A stretch of 64,000 bases of DNA from Gammaproteobacteria bacterium (GCA_965277405.1 OZ255726.1:1568001-1632000), one strand, 5' to 3'; positions 6,502 to 63,999 are shown, counted from the first letter of the stretch. Translations and numbers: made by a program. Notes: a model not told the origin generated them from the sequence alone.

Positions 6502-6580
6502 GGGAAGCTCTGACTAATTCGCTGAGTGTGCGCGGTTGTTGCTCTTTTTTAGCCCATCATTGCTTTAATCATAGCTGGCG
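6502..6580 (+). mobile_element. Internally deleted, degenerate MITE copy (both ends only)
   Basis: GGAAGCTCTGACTAATTCGCTGA matches the left end and GCCCATCATTGCTTTAATCATAGCT matches the right end of the family, about 80 bp in total. Confidence 0.6.
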
Positions 6581-10988: not shown

Positions 10989-11093
10989 GGAAACTCTGAT
11001 TAACGCGCTGATGGAGCGAGTTTGCCTGCAATTGCTGCTGATGGCAAGGCGCAAACCGCTGCGCGCATGACCTAGCGATACGCCAAGGGATGC
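10989..11093 (+). mobile_element. Truncated MITE copy (left ~105 bp)
   Basis: GGAAACTCTGATTAACGCGCTGATGGAGCGAGTTTGCCTGCAATTG...CGCCAAGGGATGC matches the family; the right half is absent. Confidence 0.85.
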
Positions 11094-11283
11094 TACCACT
11101 AGCCCCTGTTTGGAAAAAGATTTTTACCCAGACCTGCCAACGTCATACGCAGATGGTGTTTTCAAGTATAATAATGGCAGTGAAATTTCTATACAACCGT
11201 CGAATACTCTGTATTTTTTTGTATTCTGCTCATCACTACAATCTTATACAATCTTATTTTAAATACTGGAGTACATCTTGAGT

Positions 11284-12525: not shown

Positions 12526-12806
12526 GGAAGTTCTGATTAAGTCCATGACGGGCGAGACGGAGAAAAAACGCTGATGATAACTAGACTCAGTGCGCAGATA
12601 ATACTGGTGGTATTATCAAGTGCTGCAACGACGTTAGCGCAGCGTTTTTTCCCGTCCTTCTGTTGAATATACTTTGGGTTTGCTGCCATTGCTGCGCTTG
12701 CTGTGTTGCATCCCTTTGCGTATATGCTACGGCATGCGCTTAGCGCCTTGCAATCATCAGCAATGGCAGGCAAACTCGCTCCATCAGCGACTTAATCAGA
12801 GGTTCC
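12526..12806 (-). mobile_element. Complete MITE copy, reverse orientation
   Basis: Terminal inverted repeats GGAAGTTCTGATTAAGTC / GACTTAATCAGAGGTTCC; CTAA direct repeat at 12522-12525 and 12807-12810. Confidence 0.92.
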
Positions 12807-12902: not shown

Positions 12903-13493
12903 ATGGATAACGTGACTATGGATAACGCGCCACGACAGCCAATAATCGCTGGAGTAGATGAAGCTGGTCGTGGCCCATTAGCCGGGGCAGTATATGCCGC
13001 TGCGGTGGTGCTCGACCCTACGCATCCGCTGCAAGGCTTAGCAGATTCAAAAAAATTATCGGCGGCAAAACGCGCAACGTTGCGGGTGCAAATCCAGCAA
13101 CACGCGCTTGACTGGTGCATTGCCAGTGCCAGCGTTGCAGAAATTGACACGCTTAATATTCTGCAAGCAACCTTACTGGCGATGCGGCGTGCCGTTGCTG
13201 GACTATTAACTATACCACAGCAAATCCTTGTTGATGGTAATGCCAATCCAGCCAAACATGACCCGCGCTTTGTATGCCATGTTAGCGGAGATGCAACGTT
13301 TGCCTGCATTAGCGCGGCATCTATTTTGGCGAAAACAGAGCGTGATGCAGCAATGCTGGTGCTCGATAGCTATTATCCACAATATGGGTTTGCTCAACAC
13401 AAGGGCTATCCGACAGCTGTGCATCGCCAGAATATTGCAGCATATGGCGCTAGTATTGTGCATCGTCACAGTTTTCGTTTAACGAAAGCCTGA
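12903..13493 (+). CDS. rnhB: Ribonuclease HII
   Basis: AGVDEAGRGPLAG, DSKKLS, ISAASILAK and HKGYPT motifs. The start region is a 15-bp tandem duplication, so ATG 12918 is an alternative start. Confidence 0.95.
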   Translation: MDNVTMDNAPRQPIIAGVDEAGRGPLAGAVYAAAVVLDPTHPLQGLADSKKLSAAKRATLRVQIQQHALDWCIASASVAEIDTLNILQATLLAMRRAVAGLLTIPQQILVDGNANPAKHDPRFVCHVSGDATFACISAASILAKTERDAAMLVLDSYYPQYGFAQHKGYPTAVHRQNIAAYGASIVHRHSFRLTKA

Positions 13494-13677
13494 TGAAATC
13501 AAGCAATTGCAACAAACTCGCCCCGTCAGCGCGTTAATCAGCAGTTGCGAATGGATGCTTGGCAGATAGCACATCTACTAAGATGTTGGCTCGCTTGCTG
13601 GATGATTCCAATATGATGCAAAATTGCGTTGCAATCATCAAGATTGGTTTGCGCATTCGCTTGAATAAGAAGGTATT

Positions 13678-23509: not shown

Positions 23510-23820
23510 GTTGCTGAGTATTATGTTGATTGGTTAAATACAGTCATATTATGCTGCTATTTCCTGCCAGCTACGGCAGCAAAACCCACGCAAAGCGTAT
23601 GTAGTGCAACTGATTTTTTAATGGAGGACTGTGTTGTTACTGTTATCTAATTATTGGGAGGCAGGCTCTATTATCGCGTGAACCTACCCGTGCTGTGATG
23701 TAACATATACATGTATAGTTGTATATTATTGGTGTTGAAGTGCCGATGTCACTCAACTGCAGCACAATGTTGTGCTGCAATGAATTATGTATTACCACTT
23801 CTTATTACTACAACTTACTA

Positions 23821-23877
23821 CCACAACATATAGTGTGTTTTTTTGTAATTTTGTTCTAAAAGCACTATATGTTGTTT
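23821..23877. promoter_or_regulatory. Tandem NrdR boxes upstream of nrdAB
   Basis: CCACAACATATAGTGT (23821-23836) and GCACTATATGTTGTTT (23862-23877) match consensus acaCwAtATaTwGtgt at 14/16 and 13/16, 41 bp apart. Confidence 0.8.
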
Positions 23878-24362
23878 TTATATTGTCAGAGCTTTGTAAT
23901 GATTGCAATACGATATTACCTGGCACAACATGCCCTTACCAGCAAAGCCATTGTTTACCGCAACTTTCATCTAAAAAAAAATTCTCTGATTTCTTGCCGA
24001 TATCATTGACATATATTTTTTGTGAAAATATAGGGATACCGTAATAATCGTCCCGAATTTGTAATACAAATGCACGAGAAATAATGATGAAATATCAAGG
24101 ATATATAATTTTAAGCTAGCCTCATTGCCTGGGCAGGCCTTGGTAGGACGCCAGCACAACTGCCATTACTCATGCTCACAACATGCACGGTCAGTGCTGC
24201 AGCATGCGCTTGCTTACATATTGTATTTACTAAATGCTGATGATCGTTGTCAATACCGAGCTTCCCTAATGATGTGTCACCAACACCAACAATATTGGAC
24301 TGGATGCCGCATCGTTGTTACTCCGTCTCACCCATCTTGGACTGCAGCAGAGTTACCATAAT

Positions 24363-25049
24363 TTAGCAGGCAGGTATCACGGCCTGTGTGGCGATTTTAG
24401 GGAGTGGCAAATCGAGGCGCTCCCAGGTGGAGCAGTATTTTTGTAGTGCTGCGTCTGGATTGACCACAACCGGATGTGCAACACGCTGCAGCAACGGCAG
24501 ATCGTTGATTGAGTCTGAATAAAACCAAGTGTTTGCATACGATAAATCGGGCTTGGCGGCGAACCATTGTTCAACGACGACGCATTTGCCAACATTGAAT
24601 GTTGCGGTGCCGAGAATTTTCCCAGTAAAACGACCTGCCACTTGTGCTAGCATCGTTCCAAATGCCGCGTCCACATCAAACAGCTGTGCTGCGGCTTTGA
24701 CCAAATACATATTTGATGCTGAAACGATAATAATATCATCGCCTGCGGCGCGATGTTGCGCAATCCGCTCAACAAGTTCAGGGTATATCCAATATTGGAC
24801 AACGGTTTCCATATATTCTTGCAACAATACTGTGCGTTGTGCACCGACAGCATTCAAGACATCTGCAACGAACACAATATAGTCGGTCATCTGCAATTCG
24901 CCGGTATCATACAAGCGCATGAAGCCACGGTTACGTTGCTCATACCACTGTGCATCTACCACGTTTTTGTGGATCAAAAATCGCCCCCAACCGTAATCGC
25001 TGTCCGCAGCAATCAGCGTTTTATCTAAATCAAAGACAGCTAATTGCAT
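24363..25049 (-). CDS. HAD-IB family hydrolase (possible histidinol-phosphatase)
   Basis: FDLDKTLI, IVSAS and FYSDSINDLPLL motifs. Confidence 0.88.
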   Translation of the reverse strand: MQLAVFDLDKTLIAADSDYGWGRFLIHKNVVDAQWYEQRNRGFMRLYDTGELQMTDYIVFVADVLNAVGAQRTVLLQEYMETVVQYWIYPELVERIAQHRAAGDDIIIVSASNMYLVKAAAQLFDVDAAFGTMLAQVAGRFTGKILGTATFNVGKCVVVEQWFAAKPDLSYANTWFYSDSINDLPLLQRVAHPVVVNPDAALQKYCSTWERLDLPLPKIATQAVIPAC

Positions 25050-25062
25050 GGCTATGAACTAA

Positions 25063-25346
25063 GGAAGCTCTGATTAACTTGCTGATGGAGCGAGGTTGCC
25101 TGCAATTGCTGATGATTGCAAGGCGCATTCCGCAGGTGCATGCCGTAGCATATACGCCAAGGGATGCAACACAGCAAGTACCGCTTGTAGGCAAACCATC
25201 ATATATTCAATAGAAGGACGGGAAAAAACGCTGCGATCCGTTGTTGCAGAACTTGATAATACCACCAGTATTATCTGCGCACTGCGTCTAGTTATCATCA
25301 GCGTTTTTTCTCCGTCTCGCCCATCATGGACTTAATCAGAGCTTCC
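25063..25346 (+). mobile_element. Complete MITE copy overlapping the argF 3' end
   Basis: TIRs GGAAGCTCTGATTAA / TTAATCAGAGCTTCC; CTAA duplication at 25059-25062 and 25347-25350. Confidence 0.95.
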
Positions 25347-26248
25347 CTAAGTGAAATCATCAACGCTTTTTGGCTATGCAACCGATTTTCTGTGCCATGC
25401 CAAACCCCAGAGCATGCGTCATGCAATACATATTCATCGACTTCTTCACCGCGGTTTGCGGGTAAACAATGCAAAAACAATACATTTGTACTTGCTTGTG
25501 CGATCAATGCTCTATTGACTTGATACGGGGAAAACTTCATATTTCTTGCTGCTGACCCCGTATCACCCATCGAAGCCCAGACATCGGTAACGATTAAATC
25601 TGCACCGCGCACTGCTACCACAGGGTCTGCTTCTTTGGTATAATTCCTGCCATATTGCGCGACTATGGCTTGGTCAGGTTCATAGCCATCAGGACCGGCG
25701 TGAACCAGTTCAAATTTGAGCAAATATGAGGCTTCAATATATGAGTTAAGAATATTATTGCCGTCGCCCATATAGGCGACTTTCCTTCCTGCAATATCGC
25801 CGCGCAATTCAGAAAATGTTTGCATATCCGCAATGATTTCACACGGGTGATGCGTGTCTGTTAAGCCGTTGATAACTGGCACTTTGGCTACAGCTGCAAA
25901 CCTCTCTACCTCAGCTTGCTCAAAGGTGCGAATCATCACCATATCGACCATTGATGTCACCGCCATTGCAGTGTCTTCAATCGATTCGTTGCGGCTCAAC
26001 TGCAATGCATCTCTTTGTAAAAACATCGCGTGACCACCAAGATGGTAAAACCCAGCCTCAAATGACACCCGCGTGCGTGTGGAAGGTTTTGCAAAAATCA
26101 TTGCCAAGGTTTTGCCCTGAAATACCTTGGGGTTTTTTCCTTGGTAATGATCCCGCTTAATTTGCTTTGCGGCATCTATCAGTGCCACAAATGACTGGGC
26201 TGATAGGTCAGCTATTCTCAAAAAATGTTTCATAAATATAGTTGTCAC
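25298..26248 (-). CDS. argF: Ornithine carbamoyltransferase with MITE-derived C-terminal tail
   Basis: KPSTRTRVSF, HPCE, TDVWASMG, FLHCLPA and ENRLH motifs; the last 16 codons lie in the element. Confidence 0.95.
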   Translation of the reverse strand: MTTIFMKHFLRIADLSAQSFVALIDAAKQIKRDHYQGKNPKVFQGKTLAMIFAKPSTRTRVSFEAGFYHLGGHAMFLQRDALQLSRNESIEDTAMAVTSMVDMVMIRTFEQAEVERFAAVAKVPVINGLTDTHHPCEIIADMQTFSELRGDIAGRKVAYMGDGNNILNSYIEASYLLKFELVHAGPDGYEPDQAIVAQYGRNYTKEADPVVAVRGADLIVTDVWASMGDTGSAARNMKFSPYQVNRALIAQASTNVLFLHCLPANRGEEVDEYVLHDACSGVWHGTENRLHSQKALMISLREALIKSMMGETEKKR

Positions 26249-28634: not shown

Positions 28635-28911
28635 GTAAGCTCTGATTAACTTGCTGATGGATCGAGTTTGCCTGCAATTGCTGATGATTGCAAGGCGCAT
28701 TCCGCAGGTGCATGCCGTAGCATATACGCCAAGGGATGCAACACAGCAAGTACCGCTGCAGCAAACCGTTATATATTCAACAGAAGGACGGGAAAAAACG
28801 CTGCGCGCCGTCGTTGCAGCACTTGGTAATACCCACCAGACCCACCAGTATTATCTGCGTACTACGCTTAAGTTATCATCAGCGTTTTTTCTCCGTCTCG
28901 CCCATCATGGA
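28635..28911 (+). mobile_element. Near-complete MITE copy lacking the right TIR, abutting the rne stop
   Basis: Full internal sequence is present and ends at CCCATCATGGA, about 6 bp from the rne TAG. Confidence 0.9.
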
Positions 28912-28916
28912 GTCAA

Positions 28917-30629
28917 CTAACGGCTGCGATTTACTGGATTATTTTGCTTGCGCCTGCGGCGTTGTTGTTGCGTCTGTCTTTTGTTACGGTTTTGTTGTTG
29001 CATTGGTTTTGGCGGCGTTTTCTCTGCAGAAAACAGTGATTGTAATACACGGATGAACGCAGATGATGGCTTGACAACCTTGATGCTACTATTATCAATT
29101 TTAGGCTTCATATGGCGATGAATGGTATTGCGTAAGGCGGCGTTGACGTCTGCTGTATGTAATTCAACGTGGGTATTATTGCTAATCACAAACGATTTAT
29201 TGTCTTCGTCAATCCGCGTGATTTCAAACCACGGCGGGAGCATTTCAGCAGATGGTAGAATAATAATGCTCAGGCTAAATACATTTTCTAGTTCAGCAAT
29301 TTGTTCCTTCTTCTCATTTAAAATATACGTTGCGGTGCTCAACGGTAACGATGCCCGTAGTTGTGCTACTTTATCTTTACATGCCTGCTCTTGCAGAATA
29401 CGAATAATGGAGAGCGCAAATGATTCTGTACTGCGTATAAAGCCATTACCGTGGCAACGTGGACAACTCATTGTTGTCGATTCCGACAAAGAAGAACGGA
29501 GGCGTTGCCGTGACATCTCTAATAAACCAAATTTGGATATACCGCCAATTTGAATGCGGGCACGATCAATTTTTAAGGCGCTTTGTAGCGTGTCTTCAAC
29601 GATTTTTTGATTCTTGGTTTGCGTCATATCAATGAAGTCAATAATGATGAGTCCGCCAATATCGCGCAGCCTGAGTTGACGTGCTATTTCTACTGCAGCC
29701 TCAACGTTGGTTTGCAAGGCTGTATCTTCAATGCTTTTTCCTTTGGTTGCTCGTGATGAGTTGATATCTATTGCGACAAGTGCCTCTGTGGTGTCAATTA
29801 TAAGGGATCCACCAGAAGGGAGTTGTACTTCACGGAGAAAAGCAGTGTTGAACTGCTCTTCTATTTGATGCCGAGAGAATAAAGGAATTAATTCGTCGTC
29901 ATACAGCTTTATCCGCTCACGCAAACTGGAATGGAGTTTTGACACTTGCTCAATCATTTCTGCGTATATTGTCGGGTCGTCAATAATACATTCTTCGACA
30001 TCGTCAAAGAAGTAATCACGAATAACACGGCTGACTAAATTATTCTCTTGATAAATTAAGCAAGGTTTGTCTTGTTGTGCTGCGACATCTTGTATGGTCT
30101 GCCAAAGCGCCCCAAGGTAGTTAAGGTCAACAGTAATATCACCAATAGGTCGATCCAAGCCTGCGGTTCGCATGATAATGCTAGCACCACTAGGGACGGT
30201 AAGTTGTGCAATAATCGACTTCATTGCTTGACGATCATGCTCTGATACCCGACGGCTGATACCGCCACCATTTGGCTTATTCCCTAAAAACACTAAATAT
30301 CGACCTGCTAAAGAGATATATGTAGTGAGTGCTGCTCCTTTAGTGGCACGTTCCTCTTTTTCTACTTGGACAAGTATTTTTTGACCTTCTTGGATATCAG
30401 CAATGTTGGCGATATCTTTAAATGGTAAAAAACCATGTTTTTCTGTGCCAAAATTAACAAACGCAGCATCGAGGCTGTTTTCAATACGGGTAATAATGCC
30501 GACATAAACGCTTGATTTTATCTGGTACTTACGTGCTGACTCTATTTCGACATCATACAGCCAATTGTCTTCGACTAAAGCAACACGTTGCTCTTCGCTG
30601 TGTGTTGCATTGATAAGAATTTTTTTCAT
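28917..30629 (-). CDS. rne: Ribonuclease E (compact, 570 aa)
   Basis: AAFVNFG, KGAALTT, IDINSSRAT, LRDIGGLIIIDFIDM and CPRCHG motifs, then an amphipathic helix and an Arg-rich tail. Confidence 0.93.
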   Translation of the reverse strand: MKKILINATHSEEQRVALVEDNWLYDVEIESARKYQIKSSVYVGIITRIENSLDAAFVNFGTEKHGFLPFKDIANIADIQEGQKILVQVEKEERATKGAALTTYISLAGRYLVFLGNKPNGGGISRRVSEHDRQAMKSIIAQLTVPSGASIIMRTAGLDRPIGDITVDLNYLGALWQTIQDVAAQQDKPCLIYQENNLVSRVIRDYFFDDVEECIIDDPTIYAEMIEQVSKLHSSLRERIKLYDDELIPLFSRHQIEEQFNTAFLREVQLPSGGSLIIDTTEALVAIDINSSRATKGKSIEDTALQTNVEAAVEIARQLRLRDIGGLIIIDFIDMTQTKNQKIVEDTLQSALKIDRARIQIGGISKFGLLEMSRQRLRSSLSESTTMSCPRCHGNGFIRSTESFALSIIRILQEQACKDKVAQLRASLPLSTATYILNEKKEQIAELENVFSLSIIILPSAEMLPPWFEITRIDEDNKSFVISNNTHVELHTADVNAALRNTIHRHMKPKIDNSSIKVVKPSSAFIRVLQSLFSAEKTPPKPMQQQNRNKRQTQQQRRRRKQNNPVNRSR

Positions 30630-31329
30630 AAAGGGTCTCCATTAAAAACCCTCTGTAACGGTGCAAAACGTTTGTTTGGTAATACCTATCTACAAAAACA
30701 AATACTGCTGAGCCTATTAAGACCCTGGTCATTTTTGCAGTATTATTCAAACCATTAAGTAACATTGAATATGTAAATTGAAGTGATAAACATCAAGGTG
30801 TTTAGATAGAAAGGTAGGATGTGTGTGTATTATATTTATTTCCCAAACAACGACTCATCCATACGAGGGTGTTGAAAATACTACTAATTTGGTTTGCAAA
30901 TACCTGTCTTGTGAATCTTTAAAAGCCAGTTACTTGCATCGTGCAGCGTACTGCGAACGAGGCATAGCCAGTATTCACGCGAATGCATTGATGGTGTTCG
31001 TAAGTCATATAAAAATTGGTAGCATATAAATCCTATTCAAGGATATAAGCCAAAATTTATGGCTTCTTTGAAACATCATTGCATGGTGATCATTCAATAT
31101 TTGCTACAAAATGTATTCGGACAGTGCTTCTTGTGTGATAAGAGTGCAAAGACATTTTCACTATTGTACGCTATAAACCGGTTGAACGGTTATGTAATAA
31201 TCAAATATTCGCACCTTAGATGTCAAAACTACACACGTTGTTTACAAAAACCAACAATTCTAGCAGTTGGTGGTAGATTCCATAAAGCGGAATGTGTGCG
31301 ACTGAGGTTATAGCTGTTAAGATATTTTG

Positions 31330-31700
31330 GAAGAGCTTTGTTGCGTTCATCACTTGGTTGCTATGGCTGCGAAAACGCCCATTCCTTGCTAAGCGTTTGT
31401 ATAATCCTTGCTGCTTTTCCGTTGGTCTGAGGCCTGTATGGTTTGGTAAAAACGTGCTTGATTTGACATGCATCAAGATATCTATTAACGAACTTTGATC
31501 AATATGCAGGTCCGTTGTCTGTCATCTAGAGAGGAAAAGCAGGGGCAGGGCTTGCCGTGGCTGTTTGTATCTGAGCAAGGGACTAGCTTTTACCGTGACA
31601 GCATCAACTAAATTGTGACTGCCAGCTACAAGAGGGCATGGTTACGGTTATGCTCTGAATAATAAGGGGTATGATGTACGTGTAGTTCAAGACTATCTAG
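31330..31700 (+). pseudogene. Decayed FimB/FimE-like tyrosine recombinase, cut by an IS5 end
   Basis: Frameshifted fragments GLRP...DLT..ISINEL, LPWLFVSEQGT and HGYGYALNNKGYDVRVVQDYLG (box II-like). The left boundary is approximate. Confidence 0.6.
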
Positions 31701-31940
31701 GGAAGCTCTGATTAAGTCCCAAGCAACAGCAATATCAGCTAGAAAGATATACAATGGTGAATCTATTTGAATATTTGAATAAGCGGATAATCTTATGAAA
31801 CAAACAACTTTTGCCAGTGCTGCATACGACCACAAGAAAGTAACAACGAAACCAAAAAAAATTCTTGCAGTTAATGGACAAATTAGCTCCATGGCAACAG
31901 TTGTTAGAGTTAATAGAACCGCATTATCCCAAGAAAGGTA
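31701..31940 (+). mobile_element. IS5-family (IS5 group) left end and frameshifted transposase N-terminus
   Basis: CTAG then GGAAGCTCTGATTAAGTC. ATG 31795 gives MKQTTFASAAYDHKK, continuing after a frameshift as FLQLMDKLAPWQQLLELIEPHYPK. Confidence 0.85.
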
Positions 31941-32167
31941 TGTGGGATTAAATGGAAAAGTCTTTTATTGGAAAAGACTAAACCTATTGATAATGTAAAA
32001 TTTGTGGTATTCTCTGTTTGGTCAAATTTATTTTTGGCTTTTCTAAAGATGCAAGGGAGTTGTAGTCAAGAATAAATCTACCCCCCTGGCGTTTTCAACT
32101 TTGAGCAGGGTGCTCAACACCAGATATTGCCTTGCTTAATTCTTTAAATTCAGGTTTGGAGATTAAT

Positions 32168-32961
32168 ATGTTGAAGAAATCTTTATTTGTTGTAGGAATG
32201 GTCGCGTCCGTTATTTTTACGACATCAGCAAATGCTGGGTGGGAGCGATACCCTTATCTTTCCAGTACTTATGACCAAAAAATTAATGGGAAACTTGTCG
32301 CACGTTGGTTTGGTGTCCCGCAATACGGTCAGCCTACCACTTACACATGCGGCGCGACAACTACTTCAATGCAGATGGCTTGGGAAACTCATAAGAGAAA
32401 TAAAACGCTTAAATACAGTCCAACTGGTATACATAGAAAAATTTTTGGCTATCAATACCTCTGGTGGTTCTACTAGTGGCTTGACATCAGACGAATTGAA
32501 GGCAGGACAAAAGAAAATAGTTGACCATATTAACCGTACCCAAGGTCTTGGGTTAACAGTTTCTATGGCTGAAAGAAAAGATAGTTCAATAAAAAATGCA
32601 GTATCTACACTTGCTACAACGATATGTAGAAATTTTAGTCCTGCTATTCTTTATGGGAATGTAAAATATGCCTCATGGGAATGTAAAATATGCCTCAGCA
32701 AGTGGTCATTATCTTTTAGCAACGGGAATGATTTATTGTCCTCAAGGAACATGCTCTAGTGATGTAGTTGGGCTATTCATTAATGACAGTGCTTATAACT
32801 CGCCAGCGTATAGTTCTTCTCATCTGGTAAGGCGTCTTGCTGTAAGTCCAAGAAAATACCTAAGTCAAAATGAGTTAGCTTCTTACTGGAAGCCAACAGG
32901 AAGTAGACTTCCTTGGTTACGTGGTTATATGTATTTGTATAATGCAAGCCCACGAGTGTAA
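32168..32961 (+). pseudogene. Secreted C39-like (papain-fold) peptidase, two frameshifts
   Basis: Signal peptide, Q...TCGATT, GHY and INDS catalytic-type motifs spread over three frames; a 22-bp tandem duplication at 32653-32696 causes one shift. Confidence 0.65.
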
Positions 32962-34094: not shown

Positions 34095-35118
34095 GGCTCT
34101 ATTTGAATAAATTGTTGAAATATGATATGCTACAAGTATCAATCACATCCACAATGCTCTAAATCATGAAGACCTCTGAATTTAATCAGTTAAAACAAGC
34201 AGTTAATGGGCTTTCTCCAAAGCAAAAGGCTGACTTAGAACAGCATTTAATCAATCCAGAATCGCAACCTCAAGTGCTGAAATTACTTGAACAAGCGGTA
34301 CATGGATGCCCTCATTGCCAACATGACAGTACCTATAAGTGGGGCACGTCAAAAGGACGTCAGCGGTATCGTTGTCGATCATGCTTAAAAACCTATAATG
34401 CACTAACGGGTTCAGAATTGAATGGTCTGCATAAGCCTGAACTCTGGGAACAATACTGCCAAACGATGGTTGATTCAAAATCGCTGCGCATTGCAGCAAA
34501 GGAATGCGGCATCAACCTCACCACGGCATTCACATGGCGTCATAAATTTCTTAAATTGGCTGATTTACTTATGAGCAAGCAGCTTGAAGGCATTGTCGAA
34601 ATGGATGAAACTTGGTTTAAATATTCTGAAAAAGGCAGTCGCTATTTAACCACTGGCAAGCCGCGAAAACGCGGTAATAGCAAAGCATCTACAGTGAAAG
34701 CTGTTATTGGCATCGATCGAAGTGGCAACATTGTCGATCAGGTTGTAGAGCACTTTACGCTGGATCAATTACAGGCAACCTTTGTACCTAAACTCGCCGA
34801 CGATCTGGTTCTCTGTACCGACGGTCATATCAATTATGAGCATCTAGCCAAGCAGAAAAATATCAATCATGTCGTGTTAAATCAACGCCTTGGTGAGCGG
34901 GTCAAAGACAAAGTTTTTCATATTCAAACGGTGAACGCTTACCACATGAGGCTCAAGCAATGGCTAGCCCCTTTTCATGGTGTTGCAACTAAAAATCTTC
35001 ATAAATATTGTGGATGGTTTCGTTGGTTTGAGCTTAATAAACGGGGAGATATATCCCCTGCCAGCTTCATGAGGGATATGCTGTATACAGCATTTCAACA
35101 AACTATCAGAACATAGCC
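34095..35118 (+). mobile_element. IS1595-family insertion sequence
   Basis: Imperfect TIRs (GGCTCTATTTGAATAAATTGTTGAAAT / ATTTCAACAAACTATCAGAACATAGCC) and a 9-bp duplication TCCAAAAAT at 34086-34094 and 35119-35127. Confidence 0.92.
34166..35116 (+). CDS. IS1595-family transposase
   Basis: Zn ribbon CPHC...CRSC, HTH, VEMDETW, LCTDG, HIQTVNAYH and FHGVATKNL motifs. Confidence 0.93.
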   Translation: MKTSEFNQLKQAVNGLSPKQKADLEQHLINPESQPQVLKLLEQAVHGCPHCQHDSTYKWGTSKGRQRYRCRSCLKTYNALTGSELNGLHKPELWEQYCQTMVDSKSLRIAAKECGINLTTAFTWRHKFLKLADLLMSKQLEGIVEMDETWFKYSEKGSRYLTTGKPRKRGNSKASTVKAVIGIDRSGNIVDQVVEHFTLDQLQATFVPKLADDLVLCTDGHINYEHLAKQKNINHVVLNQRLGERVKDKVFHIQTVNAYHMRLKQWLAPFHGVATKNLHKYCGWFRWFELNKRGDISPASFMRDMLYTAFQQTIRT

Positions 35119-36885: not shown

Positions 36886-37767
36886 ATGGAAGCAAAACCT
36901 TTTTTAAAATGGGCAGGAGGTAAAACTCAATTAATTAAGCAAATTAAAGTACAACTACCTGAAAACATAGAATTAGAAAATTTCACGTTTATAGAGCCTT
37001 TTGTAGGAAGTGGTGCTGTATTATTTTGGATGTTTAGTTATTTTCCAAATTTAGAAAGAGCTGTTATTAACGATATTAATGCTGACCTAATAAACTCATA
37101 CTTAACAATCAAAAATAATGTACAAGAATTAATAAATACCCTTGCTACTTGGGAAACTGAATACCATAATCTCGTAGATGATCAAGACGCAAAAAAAAAA
37201 TATTATTACGAAAAAAGAGCTCTTTTTAACACTCGTAATTCTGAGCAAACCACACAAAGTGCTTTATTTATTTTATTAAATAGAACTTGTTTTAATGGAC
37301 TTTATAGGGTTAACCTTAAAAATAAATTTAACGTGCCAATGGGGGCTTATAAAAAGCCTCAAATATGTAATACAGAAAACTTATTAGCAGTTTCTAAAAT
37401 TTTGCAAAAGGTTGATATTTTAAACGGGGATTTTTCTGAAACACTTCCGTATGCAACTAAAAATACATTTTTCTACTTCGACCCACCATATAAACCATTA
37501 AGTGAAACTTCAAGTTTTAATTCTTATGCAAAGGACAAATTTAATGATGCCGAACAAATAAGATTAAAAGAATTTTGCGATGTATTAAACGAACAAAATC
37601 ATCAATGGATTTTAAGCAACTCTGATGTAAAAGGAAAAGATCCAAATAATAATTTCTTTGATGACTTATTTGCAAATTTTAATATTATTAGAGTAAATGC
37701 TCGTAGAAGTATAAATGCAAACCCAAATAAAAGAGGTCGATTAACTGAGTTGTTAATTAGAAATTAA
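36886..37767 (+). CDS. Dam/DpnM-type DNA adenine methyltransferase
   Basis: KWAGGKTQL, EPFVGSGAV, NRTCFNGLYR, YFDPPY and LSNS motifs. Confidence 0.93.
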   Translation: MEAKPFLKWAGGKTQLIKQIKVQLPENIELENFTFIEPFVGSGAVLFWMFSYFPNLERAVINDINADLINSYLTIKNNVQELINTLATWETEYHNLVDDQDAKKKYYYEKRALFNTRNSEQTTQSALFILLNRTCFNGLYRVNLKNKFNVPMGAYKKPQICNTENLLAVSKILQKVDILNGDFSETLPYATKNTFFYFDPPYKPLSETSSFNSYAKDKFNDAEQIRLKEFCDVLNEQNHQWILSNSDVKGKDPNNNFFDDLFANFNIIRVNARRSINANPNKRGRLTELLIRN

Positions 37768-37770
37768 TCT

Positions 37771-38703
37771 ATGAAAAAAATTACTCAAATATTAAATCTC
37801 AATTCAGACAATGAGTTTTTTGATTATTTCAAGGACAATTTAAATTTAAAAGGAATTACTCAATGGAGCTATTTTGTGAATTGGGAAAAGGTATATAAAA
37901 ATGTTGTTCCTTTTGAAAAAGAACTAAACCTCTTAAATATACTTATAGGTAAAGAAAACATACAACAAGAATTAAGCAATTTAATTTTAGAATATCCTAA
38001 AGTAGTAAACGCTATTCCTTTACTTTTAGCAATTCGGTTTAAAAACAAAAAAGAACAAAAAATCAACATCTTAATCAATACTGTTTCTTATCAATACGAC
38101 AATTTTGATCTCTCTGTTGAAACACCCGATCAACAAGAAGCAGAAAACATTGCTACGTTATTTGTAAATACAGGTTTAGGTGAACTTGTTAGAGATAAAA
38201 AAATTAAAAACTTAGTAGATTTTGCAACAGGAGTAGAAGTTGGTTTAGATAGCAATGGTAGAAAGAACAGAGGTGGGCATCAAATGGAAAATTTGATTGA
38301 AGGTTATATTCAAAATGTTTGTAAAGAACAGAATTTACCATATTTAAAAGAAGCAAATGCTAAAGCAATTAAAGAAAATTGGAATATAGATTTAGAAATA
38401 GATAAATCTTCACGTAGAATTGATTATGTAATCAACAAAAATGGAAAACTTTACTTTTTTGAAGTGAATTTTTACAATGGAGGCGGATCAAAACTCAAAT
38501 CTACTGCTGCGGAATATGTTAAAATGAATGATTACTGGAATAAACAAAATATTGAATTTATATGGATTACAGATGGTGCTGGATGGCTAAAAACGTTATT
38601 ACCATTAAGAGAATATTTTGATAAAGCAGAGTATTTATTGAATTTAGAAATGTTAAAAAATGGTATTTTAAAAAAAATATTACTTATTGGTCTGAAGACT
38701 TAA
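37771..38703 (+). CDS. DpnII/MboI-family type II restriction endonuclease
   Basis: YFVNWEKV, GVEVGLDSNGRKNRGG, EVNFYNGGGSKL and FIWITDGAGW motifs. Confidence 0.92.
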   Translation: MKKITQILNLNSDNEFFDYFKDNLNLKGITQWSYFVNWEKVYKNVVPFEKELNLLNILIGKENIQQELSNLILEYPKVVNAIPLLLAIRFKNKKEQKINILINTVSYQYDNFDLSVETPDQQEAENIATLFVNTGLGELVRDKKIKNLVDFATGVEVGLDSNGRKNRGGHQMENLIEGYIQNVCKEQNLPYLKEANAKAIKENWNIDLEIDKSSRRIDYVINKNGKLYFFEVNFYNGGGSKLKSTAAEYVKMNDYWNKQNIEFIWITDGAGWLKTLLPLREYFDKAEYLLNLEMLKNGILKKILLIGLKT

Positions 38704-38730
38704 ATTTTTTAATGCAGTAAAAAGTATTTA

Positions 38731-39594
38731 ATGATAAAACCCTATTTCAAATCAAAAGACAAAAAATTCTATCTTCTAAAAGGAAATACAATAGATTTAT
38801 TGCCAAAAATAAACCATAGGTTTGATATGGTTTTTGCAGATCCCCCATATTTTTTATCTAATGATGGATTATCAATACAAAACGGTCAAATAGTTTCTGT
38901 AAATAAAGGAAAATGGGACAAATTTAAAGATTATAATTCTGTGAATGATTTTAACCGAAAATGGTTAAAAGAAGTAAGAAAAAAAATGAAAGAGGATGCC
39001 ACTATTTGGGTCAGTGGCACTATGCATAACATCTTTAGTATTGGTCAAATTTTAACAGAATTAGATTTTAAGATTTTAAATATTATTACTTGGCAAAAAA
39101 CGAACCCACCACCAAATTTTTCGTGTCGCTACTTTACCTACTCTACCGAACAAATAATTTGGGCAAGAAAATCTAAAAAAGTTTCTCATTACTACAATTA
39201 TGAGTTAATGAAACAATTAAATGGAAATAAACAAATGAAAGATGTTTGGCAATTACCTGCAATTGCAAAATGGGAAAAATCATGTAAAAAACATCCAACA
39301 CAGAAACCACTGTCTGTACTTACAAGAATAATAATGGCTTCTACCAAACCCAATGCTTGGGTTTTAGATCCATTTGCAGGAAGTAGCACAACTGGAATTT
39401 CAGCTAATTTAGCATATAGAAGGTATTTAGGAATAGATCAAGAAACAGAGTTTTTAGAAATAAGTAAAAACAGAAAATTAGAAATACAAAACGAACAAAC
39501 TGCTGAAGCATATAGAAAAAAAATAGGCGGTTTTAATACTGAAAAAGAGTTTGTGAATTACTTGAAATCTGAACCTAACCAGGCCCATCTATAA
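38731..39594 (+). CDS. DpnA-type (beta class) DNA methyltransferase
   Basis: FADPPYFLSN, WQKTNPPPN, HPTQKP and LDPFAGSSTTG motifs. Confidence 0.93.
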   Translation: MIKPYFKSKDKKFYLLKGNTIDLLPKINHRFDMVFADPPYFLSNDGLSIQNGQIVSVNKGKWDKFKDYNSVNDFNRKWLKEVRKKMKEDATIWVSGTMHNIFSIGQILTELDFKILNIITWQKTNPPPNFSCRYFTYSTEQIIWARKSKKVSHYYNYELMKQLNGNKQMKDVWQLPAIAKWEKSCKKHPTQKPLSVLTRIIMASTKPNAWVLDPFAGSSTTGISANLAYRRYLGIDQETEFLEISKNRKLEIQNEQTAEAYRKKIGGFNTEKEFVNYLKSEPNQAHL

Positions 39595-40120: not shown

Positions 40121-40496
40121 ATAAGGTGATGACAAAGTCGGGAATATTGCTGGAAAGGGCCGCATAAAGCTGGGGAAAACACCCCGCCTGCACACCATCG
40201 ACAGTATCTTTTGGTGTGACCTCGCCGCTTCCGCATTGTTCTAAGGTGCCATAGGCCATGTTGCGCCGAACGGCGCACTGGTCGCAGATCATGAGCAGGA
40301 TGTTTTGCTCCAGGGCAATTGCGGCGAGCCGTTCACCGATCGGATCACCCTGCCGTAGACAGAACATATTGTCGTCGAAGAAGAACATGCCAGCAATGGC
40401 CGCCCGGTGATTGCCCGCTTCGAGTTGCGGCAGGATCATTGTCCCTAGCTTGAATGTTGAGGCCATGTCGGTGGCGAAAATATATGCGATCTTCAT
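40119..40496 (-). CDS. SaoD/DsrE-family sulfur-relay protein
   Basis: MILPQLEAG, GMFFFDDN, ICDQCAVRR and GCFPQLY motifs. Confidence 0.75.
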   Translation of the reverse strand: MKIAYIFATDMASTFKLGTMILPQLEAGNHRAAIAGMFFFDDNMFCLRQGDPIGERLAAIALEQNILLMICDQCAVRRNMAYGTLEQCGSGEVTPKDTVDGVQAGCFPQLYAALSSNIPDFVITL

Positions 40497-40497
40497 T

Positions 40498-40707
40498 GTC
40501 TGAATTCCTTATCTGGTGTATTTGGCTTTTATGATTACAGTAATGTTATAACATTACATTATTGTAGAGTCAACCAAAAATTAAGTTTAGTGAAATAATA
40601 TATCGGCGTCATCGGTGCTATGCAGATGATTGTTCAGATATAACTACTTGTTATTGAGTTTTTTTACCAGCGCCAAATAAGGCCAACCACCAGCGCAAAT
40701 GGCCGCT
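40498..40707. repeat. ~210-bp direct repeat, copy 2 (upstream region of the SaoD/DsrE gene)
   Basis: Contains the RBS-like AAGGAA on the - strand and a perfect palindrome. Confidence 0.93.
40539..40556. promoter_or_regulatory. Perfect 18-bp palindrome GTAATGTTATAACATTAC, likely GntR-family operator
   Basis: Self-complementary; the core TGTTATAACA fits the GT-N-TA-N-AC pattern of HutC-subfamily GntR sites; about 45 bp upstream of the ATG. Confidence 0.6.
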
Positions 40708-40901
40708 GCGCGAGATATCGAACACTATCCTATATATTGGCAGCACCGGCTGTCAATACCGACGCATCGCCAAGACACAGGAATCAATAATCGCTTTTTT
40801 ACAGGCTCGGCTTGGTATCGCATCCATCGACCAACAGCTAGATTTGCCGCAAAATTGAAATTAGCTGATGTCTGAACAACCTCCGTAGCATTTACACTTA
40901 G

Positions 40902-41185
40902 GGAAGCTCTGATTAAGTCGCTGATGGAGCGAGTTCGCTAGAAAATTATGATGATTGCACGGAGCGGCTTGCGTCTGTATGCCGTAGCAATACGGCAAAA
41001 ACCGCAACACAGCAAGTACCGCTTGTAGGCAAACCATCATATATTCAATAGAAGGACGGGAAAAAACGCTGCGCTAACGTCGTTGCAGCACTTGATAATA
41101 CCACCAGTGTTATCTGCGCACTGCGTCTAGTTATCATCAGCGTTTTTTCTCCGTCTCGCCCATCATGGACTTAATCAGAGCTTCC
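40902..41185 (+). mobile_element. Complete MITE copy
   Basis: TIRs intact; TTAG duplication at 40898-40901 and 41186-41189. Confidence 0.93.
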
Positions 41186-41213
41186 TTAGCGTTGTATACT
41201 TTACCTTCCCAAT

Positions 41214-41617
41214 TCAATAAACGATATTTTTTTTCTTTACGCTGTAGGGGATACAGCGCGGATGTGGCTGGTTTAAGAAAACCAATGGCAATGTGCGAAC
41301 ATTGGCTGCGCTAGTAAGCAGCAGGGCATACAAGTATTCGTTCCAGTTTCCAAGAAACATCATAATACCTGCAGTGAGGAGCCCTGATTTTACCAAGGCA
41401 GATTAATTTTGTTAAAAACCTCCCAGAAACTGGCTCCCTCGATATAAGCGGTTTCGCTCAAAAAATGCGGAATGAACATGAAGGTTGTCCTCAAAATAAA
41501 AATTGAAATGACCATACCAAATGAAAGACACACAAAGATCAGCTCAACTCTGGTATCGAAGAGACCCAAGACGTTGATCAAGGAAAATATGGGTTGGGCC
41601 TTGGGATGCACAGTCAC
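41214..41617 (-). pseudogene. Carbohydrate ABC permease fragment
   Basis: EAA-loop-like ETAYIEGASFWEVFNKINLP and FLGNWNEYLYAL...RTLP split over two frames; the N-terminal half is missing. Confidence 0.75.
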
Positions 41618-48300: not shown

Positions 48301-48607
48301 CTTCTCAGCAACTAGTTGCTGATTGTCGCGATGCTTTAATATTAAGTATCAGTTGTATTGCACTGCAAAATAATCACAAACTGTATCCTGGCGCAGCTAT
48401 GCCTGCCAAGTTTGCAGGTTTCATTGCGCTCCAACATCACAAAACTGTATCACATTGATGGCTGGATAGATGTCAGATTAAGCAAAAATGTGCGCGTTTG
48501 TTATTGGCTAGCAGCGCTTGTATGGTTGCTGTTGGTGTTGACGCGACTGCGGCTGTCGTTGCGAACAAGGCGTGGCAGAATGTTGCAGAGCCGCGATTAT
48601 TGTTTAG

Positions 48608-48887
48608 GGAACCTCTGATTAAGTCGCTGATGGAGCGAGTTTGATGGCAATTGCTGATGATTGCAAGGCGCAATCCGCTAAGCGCATGCTGTAGCATATA
48701 CGCCAAGGGATGCAACACAGCAATTACCATCAAACCCAAAGTATATTCAACAGAAGGACGGGAAAAAACGCTGCGCTAACGTCGTTGCAGCACTTAATAA
48801 TACCACCAGTATTATCTGCGCACTGCGTCTAGTTATCATCAGCGTTTTTTCTCCGTCTCGCCCATCATGGACTTAATCAGAGGTTCC
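48608..48887 (+). mobile_element. Complete MITE copy overlapping the bolA 3' end
   Basis: TIRs GGAACCTCTGATTAAGTC / GACTTAATCAGAGGTTCC; TTAG duplication at 48604-48607 and 48888-48891. Confidence 0.95.
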
Positions 48888-49195
48888 TTAGGGTGACATT
48901 GTGGTGATGGTGCGGGGTTTGCCGTTTGCCATTGACTCGCTGTATACGTATGCAGCGCCAGTGCATGGATAGGGTTTTGCATAAGATGCCGCACTGTTGC
49001 ATACACAATTTGATGGGATTGTACTCGAGACTTATTCGTGAATGCTTCACTAACAATAACTACACGAAAATGCGTTTCGCTATTAGCAGGAACGCTGTGG
49101 TTATTGCTTTCGTTGACGATGTCAAGGTGCAATGGCTGTAGCTTGGTTAACAACGACTGTTGTAAGGATGCGGCGATGCCAACGTGTTTGGTCAT
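48839..49195 (-). CDS. bolA: BolA family protein with MITE-derived C-terminal tail
   Basis: NESNNHSVP, SETHFRVVIVSEAF, IHALALHTYT and SPQC motifs; the tail is encoded by the element. Confidence 0.92.
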   Translation of the reverse strand: MTKHVGIAASLQQSLLTKLQPLHLDIVNESNNHSVPANSETHFRVVIVSEAFTNKSRVQSHQIVYATVRHLMQNPIHALALHTYTASQWQTANPAPSPQCHPKEPLIKSMMGETEKKR

Positions 49196-53285: not shown

Positions 53286-53580
53286 GGAACCTCTGATTAA
53301 CTCGCTGATGGAGCGAGTTTGATGGCAATTGCTGATGATTGCAAGGCGCATTCCGAGAGCGCATGACCTAGCATATACGCCAAGGGATGCAACCCAGCCA
53401 GCGTAAGCAATTGCCGCAAACCGTTATATATGCAACACAACGACGCGAAAAAACACTGCGCTGCGTCGTTGCAGCACTTGGCAACACCCACAAGACCACC
53501 AGTATTAGTTGCGCACTGCGCTTAAGTTTCATCAGCGTTTTTTCTCCGTCTCGCCCGTCATGGACTTAAGCAGATCTTCC
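53286..53580 (+). mobile_element. Complete MITE copy between dctQ and dctM
   Basis: TIRs present; TTAG duplication at 53282-53285 and 53581-53584. Confidence 0.93.
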
Positions 53581-54096
53581 TTAGTAATCCTTGCTGGCAA
53601 CGCCACCGCGCAAAATAATAATTTGCCGCAGCAGGCAGGATACAGACTGAATAAGCAACAGAACACAAAATGCTAAAATAAATGATTTAAGCAACCACAC
53701 CGCAGGAATACCGCCTACCGAAATTGCGCCTTCCATAATCAAGACTGAATTCAGCACCGATGGCCAGGTCCAGTATAACAATGCCGACATTGATGGGATC
53801 GCTAATACGGCAAAGCCAAACGTATCAATTCGCGCCTTGGTCATCTTGCGTGCAGTCGCATAGAAAATATCGACGCGCACATGGCGGTTGACCAACAACG
53901 TATAGCCAGCACCTAGCATAAAAAGCCCAGCATGCAGATAAAGAACGCTTTCATTGAGCGCGATTGAACTGAACCCGAAAACATAGCGCAGCAACACCAC
54001 AGCAAACTGCACAAGAACCATTAGCAGAGCAAACCAACGCACAGTCATTCCTGTCCACAGGTTGACTTGATCGAGCATATCAGCAATACGTTGCAT
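53581..54096 (-). CDS. dctQ: TRAP transporter small permease
   Basis: VVLLRYVF and GYTLLVNRHVRVDIFY motifs; four TMs; start approximate. Confidence 0.9.
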   Translation of the reverse strand: MQRIADMLDQVNLWTGMTVRWFALLMVLVQFAVVLLRYVFGFSSIALNESVLYLHAGLFMLGAGYTLLVNRHVRVDIFYATARKMTKARIDTFGFAVLAIPSMSALLYWTWPSVLNSVLIMEGAISVGGIPAVWLLKSFILAFCVLLLIQSVSCLLRQIIILRGGVASKDY

Positions 54097-54159
54097 GCAA
54101 TTTCTTAGCAAATGCCACAACCAGCGCAACGGATAGCCCCCGCACTGGTTTAATTTGCA

Positions 54160-62837: not shown

Positions 62838-63074
62838 GGAAACGCTGATTAACTCGCTGCTGGGGCGAGTTGGCTGCAATTGCTGATGATTGCCAGGCGC
62901 AAACCCAAAGTATATTCAACACAACGACGGGAAAAAGACTGAGCTAACTTCGTTGCAGCACTTGGCAGCACCCACAAGTCCCCACCAGTGTTAGCTGCGC
63001 ACGCACCTTGCTATCCATCAGCCATCTAGCGTTGTTGCTGCGTCTCGCCCGTCATGGACTTAATCAGAGCTTCC
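62838..63074 (+). mobile_element. Diverged, internally deleted MITE copy
   Basis: TIRs GGAAACGCTGATTAA / TTAATCAGAGCTTCC; TTAG duplication at 62834-62837 and 63075-63078. Confidence 0.9.
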
Positions 63075-63999
63075 TTAGGTCGATAACCCTGCCAAGATGG
63101 AAGATGCGGTTGTCGTTGTGTTGGTGGCAGAATACTCGTAGTCCTGCAAATGTTTTGCCATTGTGGTGTTCTTCGCCTGTGCTAATGGGGGTGATGACGC
63201 GGGTGCTTTTGCTATCGTTGGGTTTGAGGTAGGTCATTGTCAGGTCGCGTTTATCGGCAATAGCTTGTTGCAGGATTGCTGTTTTTTCTGAGTTTGGAAA
63301 ACTCGCTGCAATGCGCTGATATGTTAAGTTGGTCATAAAGTTGCAGATAGTAGGATCAGTGCGAATATGTTGGCTCTTAATAGGCACTTCAAGGCGAATA
63401 CCAGCCAGCGATGTGCAGCGACTCATCGCGACATATAATTGCCCGCATGCGAAGGTGCCTCTGCCAATATCAATGCATATTTTTTCGAATGTTTTGCCTT
63501 GGCTTTTGTGAATCGTGACTGCCCATGCCAGCCGCATTGGCAATTGAGTAAAGCTGCCAATTGGTTCTGCAATCATTTCGTCATCAATCACGCTAAATGT
63601 ATAGACCTCCCAGGTGTGGGCGGTAACGGTGACAGTTTTGTTATTGTCGCGCAGTTGCACGCGTAAGCTTTTCTCTGCGTCTTTGTCAACATTTCGTGAT
63701 TTAATAATCCCAATCGAGCCGTTATACCAGCGGTCTTCTTGGTCGTTATTTAACATCATTATTTGCGAGCCTATTTTGTAATGTAGCTCGGTTGCTGTGG
63801 GGTAGTATTCTCGTCCAAAATCCCCCTTAATCGTGGCAATGTTGCTGTGTTGTTTGCCTTTAAGCCGTTGGAGATGGGCGACATTGATTTCGTCTGCTTT
63901 TTGGTTGGTGGGGGTCAGTGTTATGGCAATTTCTTTCGTGTTAACGGTGCTTTGCTGGTCGTGTTGTTGATTGAGTACATGCAAATCTGCAGCGGTTGT
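63064..63999 (-). CDS. PIF1/RecD-like SF1 helicase C-terminal part with WYL-like tail, 5'-truncated by the window edge
   Basis: QLPMRLAWAVTIHKSQGKTF and GQLYVAMSR motifs, then MTYLK...RVITP...FCHQHNDNRIFHLGRV. Confidence 0.88.
   Translation of the reverse strand, partial: TTAADLHVLNQQHDQQSTVNTKEIAITLTPTNQKADEINVAHLQRLKGKQHSNIATIKGDFGREYYPTATELHYKIGSQIMMLNNDQEDRWYNGSIGIIKSRNVDKDAEKSLRVQLRDNNKTVTVTAHTWEVYTFSVIDDEMIAEPIGSFTQLPMRLAWAVTIHKSQGKTFEKICIDIGRGTFACGQLYVAMSRCTSLAGIRLEVPIKSQHIRTDPTICNFMTNLTYQRIAASFPNSEKTAILQQAIADKRDLTMTYLKPNDSKSTRVITPISTGEEHHNGKTFAGLRVFCHQHNDNRIFHLGRVIDLRKL

Follow-up and report, generated by a model that had tools for sequence, protein, structure and literature searches.

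The bolA gene lies on the minus strand of a 64-kb window (the whole stretch of 64,000 nucleotides that was analysed) and in its present reading encodes a protein of 118 residues, of which residues 16–87 match the BolA family (Pfam PF01722) with an E value of 4.6e-26. Translation of the minus-strand ORF gives the C-terminal end ...SPQCHPKEPLIKSMMGETEKKR before the stop codon (in longer form, ...TANPAPSPQCHPKEPLIKSMMGETEKKR). Residues 1–102 are native and residues 104–118 are encoded by a repeated element; Lys103 is retained at the junction, where its codon AAG is composed of the target duplication (TSD) and the first base of the element. The features of the locus are given below, positions 48839–48900 spanning the bolA stop codon, the tail and the junction.

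48839..49195, minus strand: bolA ORF in its present reading, 118 residues (translation and Pfam)
48842..48889, minus strand: the 16 tail codons in bolA, KEPLIKSMMGETEKKR, followed by TGA TGA TAA (48833–48841)
48608..48887, minus strand: element copy c5, core GGAACC...GGTTCC; in the direction of bolA transcription the B end (48887) comes first and the A end (48608) last
48604..48607, strand not given: left copy of the c5 TSD, TTAG (excision script)
48888..48891, strand not given: right copy of the c5 TSD, TTAG; CT AA within bolA CCT AAG

Excision in silico of the element core and one 4-bp copy of the TSD shortens the bolA product from 118 to 104 residues, with the end ...SPQCHPKQ. The preliminary description of this DNA had the empty site reading CAC CCT AAA CAA TAA (HPKQ and stop), and exactly this ...HPKQ end is recovered. 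Alignment of BolA with 40 relatives (41 sequences in all) shows that the family ends a few residues past a nearly invariant SPxC motif (Pro98 and Cys100), and the restored ...CHPKQ is much like the endings of the relatives (...CRHK, ...CSHKK and ...CAHKHK). A phmmer search of 1.84 billion representative sequences gave 2290 matches at E ≤ 0.001, the best being 52% identical; among the 150 matches listed of these 2290, none aligns past query residue 104. The AlphaFold2 model computed from the 41-sequence alignment has a mean pLDDT of 88.3 and its last helix at residues 86–92. Residues 93–118 are modelled as coil, with values of 76, 62 and 67 for blocks of ten residues, and the tail is predicted to be disordered. 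By calculation the peptide is basic (pI 9.5–9.7) and hydrophilic (GRAVY −1.2 to −1.4).

The repeated element and its copies

The element is a repeat of ∼280–290 bp with inverted repeats of ∼30 nt at its ends (TIRs) that begin GGAAsCTCTGATTAAGTC; the cores have the form GGAAs...sTTCC. In c5 the inverted-repeat arms (48605–48633 and 48862–48890) are 29 nt in length, 90% complementary and separated by 228 nt. The outer 17-mer of the TIR occurs 18 times in the window at three or fewer mismatches, compared with 0.15 occurrences expected from shuffled sequence. Copies were located by BLAST and with an nhmmer profile made from the copy alignment, fragments being kept at E ≤ 0.01, which gave seven full copies (c5 and the six listed first below) and four fragments in the window.

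12526..12806, plus strand: MITE copy c1, the only flipped full copy; lies ahead of rnhB, 23 nt past the argG stop, and alters no protein
25063..25346, minus strand: MITE copy c2, TSD CTAA; between argF and a HAD-hydrolase gene
28635..28925, minus strand: MITE copy c3, adjoining the stop of an RNase E/G gene; outer ∼12 nt of the B end lost or degenerate
40902..41185, minus strand: MITE copy c4, intergenic; untranslated KEALIKSMMGETEKKR
53286..53580, minus strand: MITE copy c6, at the dctQ/dctM junction
62838..63074, minus strand: MITE copy c7, with an internal deletion; 10 nt past the stop of a hutC-like gene (62823); alters the end of a WYL-domain ORF
6503–6539: element fragment between convergent genes, following the stop of a 2140-residue ORF
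10989..11105, plus strand: element fragment of 119 A-end positions (E 2e-26), between a glutamine-synthetase-like gene and argG
13435–13546 by nhmmer (13494–13541 by BLAST), minus strand: A-end element fragment directly past the rnhB stop
24310..24354, plus strand: B-end element fragment directly past the stop of the HAD-hydrolase gene 24363..25049

The 2140-residue ORF (47–6469, plus strand) has no Pfam match at E ≤ 1e-5.

Core sizes range from 237 to 295 bp. Perfect 4-bp repeats flank each of the six copies whose two ends are intact; in plus-strand reading they are TTAG in five cases and CTAA in one. Conservation among the seven copies is highest at the ends: identity to the consensus, summed over all of them, is 303/322 for the B end and 292/322 for the A end, compared with 48–94% per copy for the middle. 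Further copies lie outside the window on the same contig, where they were seen via the proteins P0003, P0004 and P0155–P0158. By its size, TIRs, TSDs and dispersed copies with different flanks, and with no transposase, the repeat is a MITE; it is too short to carry a transposase gene of its own.

At E ≤ 0.01, Pfam has no match for the element-derived ORFs P0155, P0156, P0158 and P0159. Rfam gave nothing in the 64-kb window at the gathering score, the best match being a sub-threshold mir-19 hairpin (E ≤ 1) with 27 bits against the 50 required, and a search of PLSDB plasmids in distant mode returned no match to the element. The peptide and TIR strings were not found in a full-text literature search, and on that sole basis we call the element undescribed; the MITE family is newly seen and belongs to an already known phenomenon. 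A scan of genome contigs with an 18-nt B-end pattern gave at least 65 loci, and BLAST of the element on those contigs gave matches of only 20–23 nt around the pattern, at three loci, which are therefore chance matches.

The 64-kb window contains no autonomous parent insertion sequence with these TIRs. The TIRs begin GGAAG, which we take to be the start of IS5 as well. The 4-bp YTAR duplication is the target duplication of IS5 in the available part of PMC10359306, and is thus common to the IS5 family and to the present element, which differs in being without a transposase. The only IS5/IS1182-like trace is P0157, a protein of 146 residues encoded on the same contig outside the window; a DUF772 transposase fragment (E 2.3e-5) makes up its first ∼90 residues, and it ends in an A-end tail. 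It is possible that P0157 is a remnant of the parent IS family, itself struck by the MITE, and the element was probably mobilised by an IS5-like transposase. The only transposase in the window (34166..35116; PF12762) belongs to an IS1595-family insertion sequence (34095–35118), whose 27-nt imperfect inverted ends are unrelated to those of the MITE. Among plasmids its best relatives are at most 47% identical, an assorted set from mostly gammaproteobacterial hosts.

Reading frames of the B end

Three-frame translation shows that frame 0 of all six intact B ends encodes (K/R)E(P/A/V/D)L(I/L)KSM(M/T)GET(EKK/QQQ)R followed by a stop, the main form being (K/R)E(P/A)LIKSM(M/T)GETEKKR and then TGA TGA TAA. 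Frame 1 stops after a triplet of the RKL, RKF or GNL type in five of the six copies and after seven codons in c6 (RKICLSP), and frame 2 stops after GSSD or GTSD, such that all three frames are closed within 17 codons. Both bolA and argF entered the B end in frame 0. Since the target is CTAA or TTAG, a frame-0 junction reads [S/P/T/A]-K-E or [F/L/I/V]-R-E; the junctions seen are P-K-E (BolA, the rhodanese and the secretin described below) and L-R-E (ArgF).

Other genes altered by insertions

The argF gene has an ending of the same origin.

25298..26248, minus strand: argF ORF, ornithine carbamoyltransferase (Pfam OTCace_N and OTCace), ending REALIKSMMGETEKKR

Its product has 316 residues counted from the first start and 311 in the database entry, and its translated C-terminal end is ...MISLREALIKSMMGETEKKR before the stop codon (...ENRLHSQKALMISLREALIKSMMGETEKKR in longer form). 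The BolA and ArgF translations both carry the 13-mer LIKSMMGETEKKR at their C-termini, in agreement with the preliminary description, which had reported an identical 13-mer at the ends of these two unrelated proteins. The peptide is not common to them by chance, because the DNA itself is shared: the 46 nt at the element end agree with the consensus at 45 positions in the bolA copy and at all 46 in the argF copy. Excision in silico at argF shortens the product from 316 to 302 residues and restores the native end ...KALMISLSS, and none of 33 solved chains of the OTCase family aligns past residue 297 of the 311-residue ArgF. With TIRs, perfect TSDs and the restoration of native ends on excision, the proposal that BolA and ArgF share an element-encoded tail is borne out. 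The BolA and OTCase domains are both intact and, as judged from Pfam and the alignments, retain their invariant family residues. Before the insertion, 2 nt separated the native argF stop (TAG) from the start codon (ATG) of the HAD-hydrolase gene 24363..25049 (window positions 25040–25066); copy c2 now separates argF from this downstream gene.

The other two affected sites differ in outcome. A WYL-domain ORF (63064..63984, minus strand) entered copy c7 in frame 1, the short-stop frame, and now encodes 306 residues ending ...VIDLRKL; the restored product has 307 residues and ends ...VIDLIQKN. At dctQ (53581..54129, minus strand) the product has 182 residues before and after excision, with an unchanged C-terminus. 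Copy c6 sits exactly in the overlapping dctQ stop and dctM start (TAATG), and the two genes are now ∼300 bp apart, with strongly folding DNA between them. The dctQ TAA stop lies within the duplicated CTAA, in one copy of the TSD, and the dctM ATG (near 53279) follows the other copy; the A-end TIR of c6 puts a GAGG 7 nt upstream of this ATG.

Proteins carrying the tail

The tail query was a profile of six 40-residue segments from the window, consisting of unrelated upstream parts and aligned 16-residue tails, and was run against 5.8 billion proteins of 71–2000 residues at E ≤ 10. Four of the 953 candidates carry the tail: BolA, ArgF, P0003 and P0004. P0003 (287 residues) has a rhodanese domain and ends ...MPKEALIKSMTGETEKKR (...SATMPKEALIKSMTGETEKKR in longer form). 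P0004 (729 residues) has GspD N0, Secretin_N and Secretin domains and ends ...IPKEPLIKSMMGETEKKR (...DDIIPKEPLIKSMMGETEKKR in longer form). The four genes share a single contig, of 2,174,577 bp, and each protein belongs to a cluster (90% identity) of one or two members; no tagged protein was found outside this 2.17-Mb contig among the 5.8 billion proteins of 71–2000 residues. The number of four is a lower bound, as it covers annotated proteins of 71–2000 residues, long proteins can crowd out matches and the profile is blind to the short-stop frames. The suggestion that many proteins genome-wide share the tag thus holds to the extent that a rhodanese and a secretin join the first two, 'many' amounting to at least four proteins on one contig. 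A single-sequence query (ArgF residues 277–316), weak for a 16-residue match, passed only ArgF itself of 27 candidates.

The A-end query was a profile of the frame (K/R)E(A/P)LI(K/N)SLMERV[CLQLLMIARR...]. Five of its 5672 candidates carry this frame, namely four element-made ORFs that match no Pfam family and P0157. The tails on genes with a recognizable host function number four from the B end and none from the A end. P0159, one of the element-made ORFs (45% identity to the query), lies on another contig, of 236,205 bp (ENA only), and the MITE family is therefore present in a second contig or assembly. The N-terminus of P0159, PLLKSKMGKTEQS, resembles a diverged B-end peptide, which suggests nested or adjacent copies of the element.

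Conservation of the peptide

The preliminary description had proposed a check on whether fused copies conserve the frame and peptide more than untranslated ones do. As far as the window allows, there is no extra conservation. Unfused copies agree with the B-end consensus at 44, 37 (c3, damaged), 46 (c4), 43 and 42 of the 46 positions, and intergenic c4, at 46/46, equals the argF copy. The untranslated copies c1, c4, c6 and c7 retain the 16-codon frame and the position of its stop, and the P/A and M/T variants are present in translated and untranslated copies alike. With two fused copies available as DNA, and hence low power, the peptide is conserved no further than the DNA element itself. The tail profile (5.8 billion proteins) and the 150 BolA matches listed of 2290 contain no tailed orthologue, and the carriers belong to different compartments, with cytoplasmic enzymes among them as well as a secretin of the outer membrane. 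Nothing in these results supports a function of the tail peptide.

Comparison with known elements

The closest parallels are the QMITEs of Coxiella burnetii. As described in the available part of PMC5896051, the 3' ends of functional genes there run into QMITE1 or QMITE2, from which they take their last residues and stop; QMITE1 gives pntAA and CBU_2058 the common ending ...AQTHRRQLKGAR followed by a stop (Table 2 there), and in the Dugway strain a QMITE lengthens the enhC product by 33 residues. QMITEs are like the present element in their TIRs, very stable folds, location at 3' ends and the provision of one ending to two unrelated proteins, and differ in peptide and apparently in sequence. 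The direct repeats of QMITE2 are 7–9 bp (PMC10969869, available part), compared with 4 bp (YTAR) here. A further difference from the Coxiella case is that the present host carries arginine-biosynthesis and hut genes.

In the accessible text of a 2024 review (PMC10969869), in-frame MITE–host fusions are said to be 'not unusual', with the Rickettsia RPEs cited as the most extreme example. According to the same source, citing Ogata et al. (2000, 2002), RPEs are, like the present element, selfish palindromic repeats with a conserved peptide in unrelated proteins; they differ in that these ∼150 bp units lie within genes, in frame, and translation continues through them. The present element has stops in all three frames and can therefore only replace a C-terminus: translation ends within 17 codons, with no read-through into downstream host sequence of the RPE type. 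The Correia elements of Neisseria are 100–155 bp in length and duplicate TA. They resemble the present element as an abundant MITE at gene borders and, in the available parts of PMC2649163 and PMC2229807, are co-transcribed, form hairpins and can give rise to promoters or to sites for RNase III. The element-encoded tail is an ordinary by-product of MITE insertion, of a kind known from other bacteria.

Orientation, position and RNA structure

In all six full copies that lie between genes of the same direction, it is the B end that faces the upstream gene, the ORFs that flank c4 being without Pfam support. Copy c7 and the fragment 6503–6539 lie between convergent genes and are uninformative. The fragments 13494–13546 and 24310–24354 follow the bias and 10989–11105 is the one opposite case, giving a total of eight against one (two-sided binomial probability ∼0.04, calculated by hand). 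A stop codon is found no more than 25 nt from six of the seven full copies, an effect to which the target itself contributes, since any YTAR includes TAA or TAG. The target does not account for the orientation bias, for which the candidate causes are an effect at the RNA level, a promoter within the element and the open frame of the consensus A end, which is longer (22–50 codons in c1, c2 and p1, compared with 16 at the B end). We take the bias and the clustering at stop codons to show that selection or targeting acts on the placement or persistence of copies and that something about the element is not neutral.

The c5 transcript is predicted to form a Y-shaped fold closed by the TIRs, with an energy of −144.4 kcal/mol compared with −78.6 ± 5.0 for shuffled sequences (z −13.3). 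In this fold the tail codons pair with the other TIR in a stem of ∼30 bp, and such a stem in the mRNA could lower the expression of the struck genes. The fold is kept across six copies; its 95 predicted pairs include one compensatory change, and the covariation term is +3.75. The fold is inherited, and covariation gives no support for selection on it. A simple promoter and terminator scan gave three promoter-like sites against 2.5 in shuffles, including a weak one (9/12) within the B end that faces downstream, and no terminator-like site.

Origin and role of the tail

The reading that we favour is that MITE insertions at gene ends, together with the open frame of the B end, produce the tail as a by-product without function; taking the observed anatomy, insertions, frames and four carriers together, we give it a probability of about 0.85. 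A copy inserted in the CTAA of bolA CCT AAA CAA TAA, two codons ahead of the stop, and a gene entering the B end in its open frame exchanges its last residues for the 16-residue element peptide. The argF, rhodanese and GspD secretin genes, struck in the frame of bolA, thereby acquired the common ending, and the tail is most likely tolerated as a disordered, hydrophilic and basic extension behind intact domains. The insertions appear to be recent, and the tail is probably neutral, although only two fused copies are available as DNA. The preliminary description had raised the alternative that the peptide acts as a stability or localisation signal. That it is a functional C-terminal tag (a degron, stabiliser or localisation signal) used on a set of proteins would fit its presence near consensus on four unrelated carriers; the suggestion is very improbable, however, given untranslated copies with the same frame, stop and variants, carriers confined to a single contig in a search of 5.8 billion proteins and drawn from different compartments, and a tail that is predicted to be disordered. 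Moreover, known C-terminal degrons such as the ssrA tag have non-polar ends, whereas this tail is hydrophilic and ends in KKR. The explanation of the shared ending as chance or as an artefact of assembly or annotation has nothing in its favour and is rejected: the copies differ from one another at many positions, each lies in its own flanks with its own perfect TSDs, and the repeat count is 18 against 0.15 in shuffles.

An RNA- or operon-level role, as a 3' stem–loop, processing site or internal promoter, would explain the orientation and position of the copies and leave the tail incidental. It is suggested by the eight-to-one orientation bias, the six of seven full copies near stop codons, the two copies in tight operon junctions (dctQ/dctM TAATG and argF TAG-CC-ATG), the very stable fold and the weak B-end promoter-like site, and by the tagging of four real genes by the B end where the A end tags only the P0157 transposase fragment. 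Against this, covariation is absent (one compensatory change in 95 pairs), promoter-like sites are at the shuffle level and terminator-like sites are missing from the scan, the counts are small with a clear counter-example at 10989–11105, and the YTAR target by itself enriches insertions at stop codons; we regard such a role as a tentative possibility. It is less probable, and in our view unlikely, that the insertions damage genes, the stem being cut by an enzyme of the RNase III type or stalling ribosomes such that non-stop messages, tmRNA-mediated loss of BolA and ArgF and gene decay would follow. The tail codons would form one arm of the ∼30-bp duplex, and the window is rich in repeats and long noncoding stretches; RNase III cutting of a MITE stem to give non-stop mRNA has been discussed for Coxiella, with a like idea put forward for QMITE2 in enhC (Wachter et al., 2018; PMC5896051, available part), and Correia elements bind RNase III (PMC2649163, available part). 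The intact BolA and OTCase domains with their invariant residues nevertheless argue against such damage. More speculative still, and quite improbable, is a B end selected as a 'soft-landing' module: copies would survive nearly exclusively in one orientation at 3' ends, providing stops in all frames, a stable RNA and perhaps a downstream restart, and the basic tail or its stem would co-regulate BolA, ArgF, the rhodanese and the T2SS secretin, for example via RNase III and tmRNA. Insertion at gene ends with a functionless tail remains our preferred account of the shared ending.

Genome setting and implications

The set of genes is proteobacterial in character (COQ7, a T2SS secretin, a TRAP transporter, and hut and arg genes) and the GC content is 44.8%. 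The small protein clusters (one or two members) and the 52% identity of the best BolA match suggest a poorly sampled lineage, and the cluster sizes speak against a much-sequenced pathogen. A DpnII-type restriction–modification cluster (36886–39594) comprises a D12-class N6-adenine methylase, the DpnII endonuclease and a second N6/N4 methylase. The stretches 23509–24363, 30629–32232 and 40496–41617 are unusually long for regions with no ORF of 100 residues or more. With its long ORF-free stretches and many repeats, the genome looks loosely packed and is possibly in decay.

The finding carries modest biological weight: Coxiella QMITEs and Rickettsia RPEs already offer like cases, and no result assigns the peptide a function. 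Further value, if any, would come from the biased orientation of the copies and from the insertions within operons. For annotation, protein ends of the form ...LIKSM[MT]GETEKKR should be marked as derived from the element, and they should not be carried over to BolA, OTCase, rhodanese or GspD as features of the family. The locus provides a case of a proliferating MITE that rewrites protein C-termini and splits tight operon junctions in a repeat-rich and loosely packed-looking genome.
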